Sequence record: NC_018859.1
Reading direction: 5' to 3' (one strand)
Source: Escherichia phage ECBP2
DNA length: 64,000 bases
Below, piece by piece: positions 50,045 through 56,918 of this stretch. The translations under genes and the position numbers were made by a program. The notes under the pieces are model-generated. The model ran no database searches. It was not told where the DNA came from and was given only the letters and a program-made list of their open reading frames with translations. How positions within the stretch are numbered: position 1 is the first letter of the stretch; every line of letters starts with the position of its first letter.

Positions 50045-50407
50045 TTACTCTGCTACCAGAAGGCCCAGAGATTTGCGAATGTAGGCAATGCTACGGAAGT
50101 TTCGGTAGTTTTCTTGGAAGCGCATTTTTTCGAATTCTGCTTCCTGAAGTTCTACCTCTGCTGCATTGTATCCTGCCACAGCCAAACTCACCACATCCTG
50201 AGGTAAGGTATTACGACGACGAATAAGATATTTATTCGCCTTTAACTTGCTTTGTGCACGAGCCATTTTGGCCTTTGCCGCCTTGATGCCATGAGCAATC
50301 CAGAGCAATTGCTGCTCCAAATCATTCTCGTCCATGCCACCCAAATCATTTGCTACTTTATGCAGCGTAGACAGGTTCACATGGCCTTTGATGGGGCGTA
50401 GGTTCAT
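50045..50407 (-). CDS. hypothetical protein
   Basis: 120-aa ORF. Confidence 0.4.
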   Translation of the reverse strand: MNLRPIKGHVNLSTLHKVANDLGGMDENDLEQQLLWIAHGIKAAKAKMARAQSKLKANKYLIRRRNTLPQDVVSLAVAGYNAAEVELQEAEFEKMRFQENYRNFRSIAYIRKSLGLLVAE

Positions 50408-50571
50408 AACTTCTCCTGTTTATCACATTGATTGGTAAGCCAGTTATAAGACCCTCTGTTGTTCTTGCTTAATTCACAAGATACAAAGGAAGTCACACGG
50501 GCAAACCCCACGGTGGCTAAGCAAATAAAGATTGCTGCCAATAAGAACTTAACTTTCAACTTATTATCCAT
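50404..50571 (-). CDS. small secreted/membrane protein (55 aa, below track cut-off)
   Basis: MDNKLKVKFLLAAIFICLATVGFA...; stop overlaps the next ATG. Confidence 0.3.
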   Translation of the reverse strand: MDNKLKVKFLLAAIFICLATVGFARVTSFVSCELSKNNRGSYNWLTNQCDKQEKL

Positions 50572-50590: not shown

Positions 50591-50616
50591 TAAAAAAGGA
50601 CTCTCCTAAGAGAGCC
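50591..50616 (-). terminator. rho-independent terminator
   Basis: GGCTCTC-TTAG-GAGAGTCC hairpin + U6 on the - strand. Confidence 0.5.
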
Positions 50617-50684
50617 AAGCTTTAAGGCCAATTAAATAGATATCACCCAATATCTGTGGATAACCTGCTCTTAAAATATTCTAT

Positions 50685-50815
50685 CCGACGGATGTTCGAG
50701 GACTGTTCCTCTCCCTAGCATCGGCCCCATACGGGTAAGATTAAATTAAGTTTAGGTTAGTTGAGCCAGAATAGCTCACATAGCCCTCTGATACTCACAA
50801 GGGCTATAGATGTTA
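50685..50815 (-). other. conserved 3' non-coding element, copy 1
   Basis: About 130 nt starting at the stop of gene 50813-51064; core CTCACATAGCCCTCTGATAnnCACAAGGGCTATA...GATGTTAC is shared with 56348-56465. Confidence 0.5.
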
Positions 50816-51064
50816 CTCTGTGGCTCCGTCGAAGCGTAGGATTGCTGTTGGAACAGGAATCACAACCATGTCAATCTCTAAACGGAAGAGATGGCCTGTG
50901 CTTAGCTGAACTGCTGTTACCGGTTTAGCGATACCACCAACAGATGCTGAGGGGATTCGAATAAAGAAATCCCCCGGATATTCCGTTGCACGAAATACAT
51001 CTCCCGGTGACATATCCTTTACTTGGGTAATTGATTCAGGAGGGGTTTTATTAGCAATTTGCAT
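50813..51064 (-). CDS. small GDVF-motif family protein
   Basis: VKDMSPGDVFRA... Confidence 0.5.
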   Translation of the reverse strand: MQIANKTPPESITQVKDMSPGDVFRATEYPGDFFIRIPSASVGGIAKPVTAVQLSTGHLFRLEIDMVVIPVPTAILRFDGATE

Positions 51065-54294: not shown

Positions 54295-54370
54295 TGGTGC
54301 ACCCTACAGGATTCGAACCTGTAACCAACGACTTAGAAGGTCGCTGCTCTATCCATTGAGCTAAGGGTGC
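54295..54370 (-). tRNA. tRNA-Arg (anticodon UCU), CCA encoded
   Basis: GCACCCTTAGCTCAATGGATAGAGCAGCGACCTTCTAAGTCGTTGGTTACAGGTTCGAATCCTGTAGGGTGCACCA folds as a cloverleaf: 7-bp acceptor, GCTC/GAGC D-stem, anticodon loop CUUCUAA, T-arm ACAGG-TTCGAAT-CCTGT. Confidence 0.85.
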
Positions 54371-56190: not shown

Positions 56191-56223
56191 TGCCAGTTAA
56201 TATAAAGGGAAGCCCTACACGTT
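56191..56223 (-). terminator. putative terminator hairpin
   Basis: GGAAGCC...GGCTTCC 7-bp stem with 11-nt loop followed by a U-rich run on the - strand. Confidence 0.35.
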
Positions 56224-56347
56224 AAGGCTTCCGCTTGTACAAACTGTCGAGAACTCTCTACCCCTAGATTGTTCTCTATCCCAAACCGATACATACCCCT
56301 ACATATCGGAATGCCATTCGAAAATTAAACAGGTTTTAGTCTATCAC

Positions 56348-56465
56348 CGGATGTTTGAGACAAGTCTCGCCCTAGCGGTGAGCCATATGGCATTGAGATT
56401 ATAGTTAATTGAGGAACATCCTCACATAGCCCTCTGATAAACACAAGGGCTATAAGTCGATGTTA
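56348..56465 (-). other. conserved 3' non-coding element, copy 2
   Basis: Core shared with 50685-50815; begins at the stop of gene 56463-56687. Confidence 0.5.
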
Positions 56466-56687: not shown

Positions 56688-56918
56688 TTAACCACCAATA
56701 TTCGTTACTTGTACATTAGGTACAGAGATAACTTCATGATCTTCAGGTATCTGGAACAAAGTCCCCTGACCAAGACCAACGACACGGCGCATACCCTGCA
56801 CATAGGTGTCTGTCTTTAGGTAGAGGTGTTCAGTGTTATTTTGTAATCGGAATACGTCACCCGGACGTAGATCGCTGAGCTTTTTAGTAACAACTAAAGA
56901 TGGGAGATTAATTTTCAT
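56688..56918 (-). CDS. small GDVF-motif family protein
   Basis: LSDLRPGDVFRL. Confidence 0.5.
   Translation of the reverse strand: MKINLPSLVVTKKLSDLRPGDVFRLQNNTEHLYLKTDTYVQGMRRVVGLGQGTLFQIPEDHEVISVPNVQVTNIGG

Follow-up and report, generated by a model that had tools for sequence, protein, structure and literature searches.

What is a non-coding sequence for when it is conserved more strongly than the genes around it? The question is raised by a stretch of 64,000 nucleotides from Escherichia phage ECBP2 (NC_018859.1; hereafter the window), in which an element directly behind the stop codons of two related genes had been flagged in an earlier note, for its first copy at 50685-50815, as better conserved than its flanking genes. 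We propose, with a probability that we put at roughly 0.6, that this element is the 5' scaffold of an early phage small RNA (sRNA) of ~230 nt (50820-50592, minus strand), in which the scaffold is followed by a stretch antisense to the leader of nrdD, the host gene for anaerobic ribonucleotide reductase (this stretch is called the anti-nrdD seed), and by an intrinsic terminator. The phage itself is a phiEco32-like podophage of the SU7 type, genus Suseptimavirus (Gordonclarkvirinae), with TH43 and TH34 as its closest records.

The genes around both copies all lie on the minus strand, and the element is read in mRNA sense there; the parts of the two copies described below are on this strand. Copy 1 stands directly 3' of the stop codon (50815-50813) of the open reading frame (ORF) 51064-50813, and copy 2 directly 3' of that of ORF 56687-56463; the two encoded proteins are weak paralogs (35% identical, 54 amino acids, E = 5e-7). 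Pairwise alignment of the copies confirms the claimed difference in conservation: identity is 68% over the whole domain and 80%, with an indel, in the core of its first hairpin (P1), versus 54% for the upstream coding sequences, which have indeed diverged heavily and lie near the shuffled baseline of 49.5 +/- 2.2%, and 51% for the 140 nt downstream. Two exact occurrences, and no others, are found of a 33-nt core, ATAGCCCTTGTGnnTATCAGAGGGCTATGTGAG (50775-50807 and 56421-56453), with zero expected by chance. When scanned on the window, a covariance model of the element family recovers the two copies only (50820-50679 with 127 bits and 56466-56338 with 111 bits; the next best match has 13). The interval flagged earlier is inside the element, which extends from ~50820 to 50679, and the functional unit of copy 1 probably runs on to 50592.

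A structured RNA domain and its distribution

The element is a structured RNA domain, built from the helices P1, P2, P3, and P4-P5 together with a 7x7 internal loop that is invariant. Comparison of both copies with those of phiEco32, SU10, LAMP, Paul, MN05, NJ01, KBNP1711, 7-11, SE131, pSal-SNUABM-01, and metagenome contigs gives a family architecture that reads, from 5' to 3', R-U-R-A-Y motif, P1, P2, A/U-rich linker, P3, P4/loop/P5, and UAGA. In a MAFFT alignment of 38 distinct sequences, evaluated with a hand-set structure and with slid pairing partners as controls, 96.5% of pair cells are paired, versus 34-45% in the controls (34-47% over all slid controls), and 11 pairs change on both sides, versus 0-4. 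With the more distant phage IME11 added, both-side changes are seen in 15 of 27 pairs (0-6 in controls), in an alignment that was fitted to the model and for this reason leans in favor of the structure. Changes from U.G to U-A and from U.G to C-G agree with an RNA of the minus strand.

Conservation starts in every copy at the 5' boundary motif, irrespective of the upstream gene; in copy 1 this motif is GAGUAAC (50812-50818), which overlaps the stop codon. RNAalifold, applied to full-length copy-1 RNAs, places the motif in an additional helix, P0 (AGUAAC/GUUAUU; in the window, GAGUAAC with GCUAUUC at 50775-50769), which extends P1 and competes with P2, the two being mutually exclusive. The P0 5' variants GUAAC, GUGAC, and AUAAC are all still pairable, and copy 2 has AACAUC/GAUGUU, AACAUC/GGUGUU, or AACACC/GGUGUU, with the C.A combination never seen.

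P1 (UAUAGCCCUUG...CAGAGGGCUAU, 50780-50808) is the hairpin on which the earlier note had centered its description. The described 8-bp stem and 12-nt loop are present in the exact repeat, and the hairpin is followed by GUGAG and no U-tract, in agreement with the view that it is not a terminator. The helix is paired in 98% of cells, and with IME11 and the metagenome contig L271 counted, six of its eight pairs show changes in both partners; among enterobacterial podophages the sequence of its base (UAUAGCC/GGCUAU) is kept and the distal part is variable. Yet the hairpin is the least universal piece of the element, its sequence being wholly replaced in L271 and IME11 with the helix retained. Likewise, the near-identity of the core between copies holds in the lineage of the window phage but not in Kuravirus, where copy 1 carries a different, short, UUCG-capped P1 (8009-8033 in record L003); the distal P1 of copy 1 in the window resembles that of copy 2. 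This pattern suggests that, in the SU7-like lineage, the two copies have exchanged sequence by gene conversion, which would explain the nearly identical 45-nt core.

P2 (GAGCUA-UUC-UGGCUC, 50763-50777, with a 3-nt loop) is misaligned by alignment tools, and its covariation was read by hand: compensatory variants are GAGUUA/UGACUC, GAGUUA/UAACUC, GAGCUA/UGGCUC, and GAGGA/UCCUC, next to a 10-bp form in 7-11, GGUAUACA/UGUAUAUC in L271, and GAUAGG/CCUAUC in IME11. The A/U-rich linker AACUAACCUAAACUUAAUUUAAUCUUA (50736-50762) leads to P3 (CCC-GUAU-GGG, 50726-50735), a 3-bp hairpin with a conserved RUAU loop that is 100% paired and compensatory at two of three pairs (CCC/GGG, GCC/GGC, GGC/GCC). The remainder (50685-50724) is formed from P4 (CCGAUG/CGUCGG), of which four of six pairs are compensatory with up to four pair types, the internal loop that it encloses, and P5 (GAGGA...UCCUC). 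In copy 2, the corresponding parts are P1 at 56454-56426, P2 at 56423-56411, P3 at 56391-56382, and P4/loop/P5 at 56381-56344.

The internal loop has the strands CUAGGGA (50718-50712) and GAACAUC (50697-50691), and in all 38 sequences the letters CUAGGG(A/C) opposite (G/A)AACAUC are invariant. The base after GGG covaries with the base before AACAUC (A..G, C..A, once A..A). Under the scheme of isostericity families, such covariation is expected of a non-Watson-Crick pair of the sheared type, which these two positions may form. What is invariant across the family is the P3/P4/internal-loop/P5 core. Likenesses by eye to the 11-nt GNRA receptor, K-turn, loop E, hairpin ribozyme, and CsrA sites were inconsistent across copies and were dropped.

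The element is present in ~100 Gordonclarkvirinae records, with two copies apiece in those examined; in phiEco32, one sits between phi32_113 and 112 and the other between phi32_91 and 90. Beyond this group, it is found in the 7-11-like Salmonella phages 7-11, SE131, and pSal-SNUABM-01, upstream of the endolysin gene, in several metagenome contigs, and in IME11, an N4-like Gamaleyavirus. Among the metagenome contigs, L271 (69.6 bits with the covariance model) is binned as a Flavobacterium metagenome-assembled genome, with surroundings that resemble a phage early region; its P1 and P2 are entirely different in sequence yet helical, and its P3/P4/loop/P5 core is retained. The IME11 match (40.5 bits, E = 8e-8) lies ~130 nt past the preceding stop codon and comprises a new P1, a new P2, a linker, P3 as GCC-GUAU-GGC, a new P4 (CUGACG/CGUCAG), CUAGGG...CAUC, and UAGAC.

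The genes around the element are not constant. The gene 5' of copy 1 is phi32_91 in phiEco32, a phi32_92 homologue in SU10, and phi32_93 in LAMP, and the link to what the earlier note had called GDVF-family genes therefore applies to the present genome but not elsewhere. On the 3' side stand phi32_90 in Kuravirus, the endolysin gene in 7-11, and others in IME11 and L271. The element, its tail, and the terminator travel together while the upstream gene changes. The Cronobacter phage GAP52, a 7-11 relative, has its own NrdD-like anaerobic reductase and, in the region 45000-76631 (L280), lacks both the RNA element and the anti-nrdD core. A search for related loci with a gp89 homologue found nothing. 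Matches to a degenerate pattern in IMG/VR were almost all due to chance and were rejected by the covariance model. L022 and L027 (23-26 bits) are a terminator ahead of a coding region and not the element, and L005, L006, L013, L253, L258, L263, and L270 are chance matches. None of the GenBank records inspected has a non-coding-RNA annotation at the element, and in the record of phage Paul a 31-amino-acid ORF is annotated across it.

Complementarity to the host nrdD leader

On its 3' side, the scaffold is immediately followed by 34 nt, AUAUUUUAAGAGCAGGUUAUCCACAGAUAUUGGG (50646-50679), whose relation to nrdD was missed by the earlier reading because it is 3' of the interval flagged there and invisible without host genomes. 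Searched against all complete Escherichia coli genomes, the copy-1 RNA matches once in each of 5,423 out of 5,426, with 29/31 to 32/34 identical positions and no annotated feature at the site; by our estimate, a 29/31 match is expected by chance ~2e-6 times for 236 nt against one genome. The match is on the strand opposite nrdD, immediately 5' of its start codon, and the phage RNA is antisense to positions -43 to -10 of the leader, abutting the Shine-Dalgarno sequence; the complementary leader sequence is CCCAAUUUCUGUGGAUAACCUGUUCUUAAAAUAU, continued directly by GGAGCGAUCAUG. Within the 34 nt there are two differences, one a G.U pair and the other a U.U mismatch. The NrdR-box promoter region of nrdD can be located from an oligonucleotide sequence printed in PMC12176259; the complementary stretch lies downstream of this region and should therefore be within the nrdD 5' untranslated region (5'UTR), of ~135 nt. 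What marks trans-acting sRNAs, a conserved complementarity at the translation-initiation region of an mRNA, is accordingly found here.

The seed is more constant than its surroundings. The 34-nt stretch is invariant in 26 copies from E. coli phages save one base in one, and loops and linker vary; the core GGUUAUCCACA is retained in all copy-1-type RNAs, Salmonella phages included. On the host side, we sampled five non-E. coli nrdD leaders, from Klebsiella, Salmonella houtenae, and three unidentified enterobacterial contigs, the Salmonella leader being taken from a 501-kb chromosome contig of S. enterica subsp. houtenae (AGRM01000005.1, L281). The leader core UCUGUGGAUAACCUGUU is identical in five of five, and flanks vary between genera; the E. 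coli core starts with UU instead of UC and is otherwise the same. RNAs of E. coli phages match the E. coli-specific flanks as well, and their pairing with the E. coli leader is predicted at -52 kcal/mol with 33 bp (the longest pairing with at most one mismatch), compared with -46 to -48 kcal/mol and 23 bp for the Salmonella leader and -41 to -43 kcal/mol and 19 bp for that of Klebsiella. The 7-11-like record L269, in turn, pairs best with the Salmonella leader, including the flank UUAUAAAUAU (-48.0 versus -43.9 kcal/mol). Judged by these comparisons of sequence, the complementarity between seed and leader is selected and tracks the host.

In a collection of phages, the leader matches 34 records beyond Gordonclarkvirinae at 80-90% identity, and the matches listed are N4-like Gamaleyavirus phages (Schitoviridae). 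In IME11, UAUUUUAAGAAUGGGUUAUCACAGAAAAUG stands in the corresponding place behind the scaffold, with a hairpin after it. Relative to a perfect antisense, this sequence has two substitutions in the central AAUGGG segment, both G.U-compatible, as well as two changes without this compatibility, a one-base deletion and one 3'-edge difference; with the E. coli leader, a duplex of -35.7 kcal/mol is predicted. The unit of scaffold, anti-nrdD stretch, and terminator is thus common to three phage families.

The 3' end of this unit is an intrinsic terminator, GGCUCUC-UUAG-GAGAGUC followed by six U (50592-50616; terminator scan, 50616-50599), as is usual for the 3' end of an sRNA. It has a 7-bp stem, conserved across families with a variable loop, and an A/U-rich stretch ahead of it, and it is annotated as a terminator in the SU7 and 7-11 records. 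The earlier note is thus right that a true terminator comes further on, with terminator-like sites 69 nt past the domain end in copy 1 and 106 nt past it in copy 2. From the U-tract of copy 1 to the next start codon there are ~25 nt. The tail of copy 2 (56199-56309) is of a different kind, with GGGG-loop hairpins at 56309-56286 and 56276-56249 and a weak terminator-like hairpin at 56232-56208, then CUUUAUAUU; against E. coli genomes, it gives no match. Its two GGGG hairpins, GUAGGGGUA and CUAGGGGUAG, are closed by UA/UA, are conserved in Kuravirus copy 2, and are echoed in L271 (UGUAGGUGUA, CAGGGGUG); there is a likeness between this motif and the CUAGGG strand of the invariant internal loop.

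In the predicted folds of the RNA, the seed is partly engaged. The linker pairs with the start of the anti-nrdD stretch through UAACCU/AGGUUA and CUUAA/UUAAG, which appear as a closing helix in RNAalifold and in the minimum free energy (MFE) fold, and a linker/seed helix can be drawn in IME11 too by reading the sequences. Because it pairs with the seed, the linker itself resembles the nrdD leader (16/20 nt, by reading). MFE and centroid folds place a hairpin, AGAUAUU-GGGU-GAUAUCU, at 50638-50655, whose 5' arm and loop hold the 3' end of the anti-nrdD stretch and whose loop has an unpaired probability of ~0.8; UCCACAG and the GGG of this loop are predicted to be accessible in the free RNA. RNAduplex runs were restricted, since unrestricted ones were uninformative; the seed/nrdD duplex is predicted at -50.2 kcal/mol, with opening costs of 12.7 and 12.0, leaving a net -25.5. 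In the E. coli nrdD leader, UGUUCU is predicted to pair with the Shine-Dalgarno sequence; in other leaders this pairing, by reading, is mostly wobble. A search for targets inside the phage gave only chance-level 11-13-mers, in an output also cluttered by trivial self-matches.

Three further features were seen near nrdD in E. coli. The strand antisense to the leader carries a small hairpin followed by T6 (GGAAAGGCGTTTTCCGGTTTTTT; L273, 1234-1260) just past the shared stretch. The leader carries a second TGTGGATAA, a sequence within the conserved leader core, further upstream. The 10-mer TCAAACATCC, which in C..A-type copies of the element is formed from the 3' strand of the internal loop and the first base of P4 (compare window 50689-50698), recurs upstream of the nrdD promoter in the FNR/NrdR region (L273, ~1400-1416, nrdD-sense), probably by chance (~0.05 expected).

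The proposed RNA and competing explanations

How might such an RNA arise and act? Host RNA polymerase would transcribe it along with the early genes, and as no conserved promoter was found, it would have to come from a polycistronic early transcript. From this it would probably be excised at or near the long irregular P0/P1 hairpin, a candidate processing site, with the intrinsic terminator (50616-50592) setting its 3' end. In the free RNA, the linker would act as an internal target mimic that holds part of the seed, with UCCACAG and the GGG loop as exposed toeholds, and the longer duplex with the leader could displace the linker. Going by the complementarity, the nrdDG mRNA would be bound in trans beside its Shine-Dalgarno sequence, and its translation or stability altered. 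The geometry favors repression, which could come about by ribosome occlusion or by RNase III cleavage of the 34-bp duplex; alternatively, the RNA might activate through remodelling of the leader. Among the three roles that the earlier note had offered (an RNA processing or stability element, a 3'UTR-derived small RNA, or a protein-binding site), we thus favor the second, and processing or stability alone becomes a rival explanation.

Several results weigh against this proposal. No sigma-70-like promoter was found inside either element in the scan, and the phiEco32 gp36 promoter consensus tAATGTAtA (PMC8948821), searched as TAATGTATA, does not occur in either element with up to one mismatch; the nearest match is at 56710-56718, and one-mismatch matches occur at chance frequency in the window. 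There is no NrdD homologue in the window, so that repressing the host enzyme would be of no obvious benefit, and the lambda sRNA PreS shows that a phage sRNA can raise the expression of a host replication gene (bioRxiv 10.1101/2024.10.31.621285), which argues against assuming repression of nrdD. In the free RNA, the linker is predicted to occupy roughly half of the anti-nrdD stretch. The RNAs of 7-11, SE131, and L255 pair over 19-21 bp of the conserved core and do not prefer the Salmonella leader. For copy 2 and L271, which have the scaffold as well, no target was detected, so the proposal does not explain the scaffold's own function. Finally, the strand asymmetry arising from G.U pairs is small (-52.2 versus -47.2 kcal/mol for the window, -35.7 versus -33.7 kcal/mol for IME11), so the match by itself is compatible with an explanation at the DNA level.

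As a module, the scaffold recurs in paralogous and in distant phage RNAs with differing 3' tails, and most likely it supplies a handle for processing, stability, or protein binding. It is possible to go further and regard it as a reusable handle for a protein or machine, with the 3' sequence as an exchangeable guide, in a modular system re-targeted among at least three phage families; one version would be aimed at nrdD and those of copy 2 and L271 at other targets, and the effect would come from a dedicated host or phage effector rather than from plain antisense occlusion. We regard this extension as unlikely.

A cis-acting role strikes us as no more probable than that extension. The element would then be a leader RNA controlling the downstream terminator, either by put-like polymerase read-through or as a riboswitch or attenuator, into phi32_90-80 for copy 1 and phi32_112 onward for copy 2. 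The arrangement is suggestive: two paralogous copies in the early operon each precede a terminator-like hairpin by 70-110 nt, there is no room for a promoter between terminator and next gene, so the downstream genes need read-through, and the invariant internal loop resembles a binding pocket. The putL and putR RNAs of phage HK022, which act in cis on the beta' zinc-binding domain of RNA polymerase, are likewise two similar structured copies before terminators in early operons, with irregular helices and non-canonical pairs (PMC9378689). They measure ~70 nt with two stem-loops, however, and have no complementarity to a host mRNA; by architecture, the element described here differs, with 130-140 nt, five helices, a three-way junction, the 7x7 loop, and a host-directed antisense tail. 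An antiterminator pairing could be read over just 4-5 bp (AAGAG/CUCUU) and is weak in 7-11 and pSal, the downstream genes are unrelated between families, and the 34-nt host-specific complementarity to nrdD and its recurrence in IME11 would be left unexplained.

Slightly less probable still is that the element does nothing beyond mRNA processing or stability, with P0/P1 as an RNase III-type site like those of T7 early mRNA, the rest as a structured spacer that protects the 3' end of the upstream message, and the similarity to nrdD as incidental. Its position right behind stop codons would suit such a role, as would the P0-P1 hairpin of ~20 bp, irregular and with internal loops, and the idea was already among the suggestions of the earlier reader. 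A stabilizer, on the other hand, has no need of an invariant 7x7 loop or of a conserved 34-nt match to a single target, and it would not account for a module that keeps its tail and terminator past changing upstream genes, occurs in three phage families, and in IME11 stands well away from the previous stop codon.

Least probable, and to our minds very unlikely, is a DNA-level site at which the nrdD-shared stretch binds the same host protein as the host site (an origin mark, roadblock, or operator), for although TTATCCACA (50655-50663) is the only perfect 9-mer DnaA box in the window, the leader core with TGTGGATAA is conserved in enterobacterial nrdD leaders, and the two strands differ little in pairing energy, the box is single and outside any cluster, the GC-skew switch lies elsewhere (~18 kb), the E. 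coli-specific flanks are unconserved between host genera and invariant in phages, and the stretch always sits, in antisense orientation, between scaffold and terminator inside an RNA with strand-specific G.U pairs. A DnaA-dependent origin is not supported either: next to the perfect box there is one box with one mismatch 90 bp away, and the 29 one-mismatch matches in the window (18 expected) form no cluster.

Related systems and neighboring features

Phage RNAs that base-pair with host transcripts are a kind already known. The prophage sRNA DicF and the anti-sRNA AgvB are horizontally carried, pair with host transcripts, and end at intrinsic terminators, with lengths of 50-150 nt and seeds of 7-15 nt. 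The RNA proposed here differs from them in belonging to virulent phages, in its probable origin by operon processing, and in a large scaffold common to paralogs. GlmY and GlmZ are two homologous structured sRNAs per genome of which one only has a stretch that pairs with a target leader. Copies 1 and 2 share this arrangement of paired homologs, one with a target stretch, but neither their sequence nor their structure (the Rfam models are negative), and target and protein partners are others. The RNase III sites of T7 early mRNAs are irregular intercistronic hairpins that follow early genes and define RNA ends; unlike the element, they are single hairpins without a conserved downstream domain or antisense tail.

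The lambda RNA PreS/LPR1 is a base-pairing RNA that acts on the host replication gene dnaN in the lytic cycle (bioRxiv 10.1101/2024.10.31.621285). As would be the case here, a phage RNA takes over the supply of DNA precursors or replication at the RNA level by base pairing. PreS, to which no relation in sequence or structure is expected, comes from a temperate phage and was discovered through Hfq RIL-seq, whereas here the phages are virulent, nrdD would be the target, and the element has a far longer complementarity (34 nt) and a conserved scaffold of 140 nt before the seed. In the literature searched, we found no description of a Kuravirus sRNA or of any RNA by which a phage targets nrdD. New are the target, the large scaffold that the RNAs share, the host-specific seed of 34 nt, and the occurrence in three families of virulent phages.

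Scanned with Rfam 15 at gathering thresholds, the window matches only tRNA-Arg and no family at the element; at E <= 10, the region 50560-50840 matches only STnc100 (21 bits, threshold 47) and Ocean-VII (10 bits, threshold 53.5). The models covered include hammerhead, twister, pistol, hatchet, hairpin, GlmY/Z, and riboswitches. A link of STnc100 to nrdD was discarded, as nrdD leaders match no Rfam family. ARAGORN finds no tRNA or tmRNA cloverleaf at the element.

If the proposal is correct, a conserved sRNA of virulent coliphages, several of whose carriers are therapy candidates, would reach into the deoxynucleotide supply of the host under anaerobic, gut-like conditions. Such an RNA would be shared horizontally among three unrelated families, Gordonclarkvirinae, Grimontviridae, and Schitoviridae (Gamaleyavirus), and would explain why phages that otherwise have almost no nucleotide similarity have this non-coding DNA in common. 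The finding would also provide a directly testable target pair and a new structured-RNA family for Rfam, and would flag the nrdD leader element UCUGUGGAUAACCUGUU as a regulatory site of enterobacteria.

Some smaller observations concern the records and the surroundings of the two copies. AGRM01000005.1 is a bacterial chromosome contig filed among phage records, and several chromosomes of 4-5 Mb are filed among plasmids. A 55-amino-acid ORF directly 3' of the copy 1 terminator (50404-50571, minus strand), a homologue of phi32_90 without a Pfam match, is annotated in phiEco32, SU10, and LAMP and unannotated in SU7 and MN05. A -10-like TATAAT in copy 2 was rejected as a promoter, since it is not conserved in Kuravirus. 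The gp36 match at 56710-56718 (minus strand), TAATGTACA, is a near-consensus middle/late element ~25 nt 5' of the ATG of the small gene preceding copy 2, and this gene and copy 2 could form a short transcription unit of their own. Between the two copies lies tRNA-Arg(TCT) (54295-54370, minus strand), the sole tRNA found by ARAGORN; counting it with the two copies, the early region would hold at least three non-coding RNA genes inside 6 kb.

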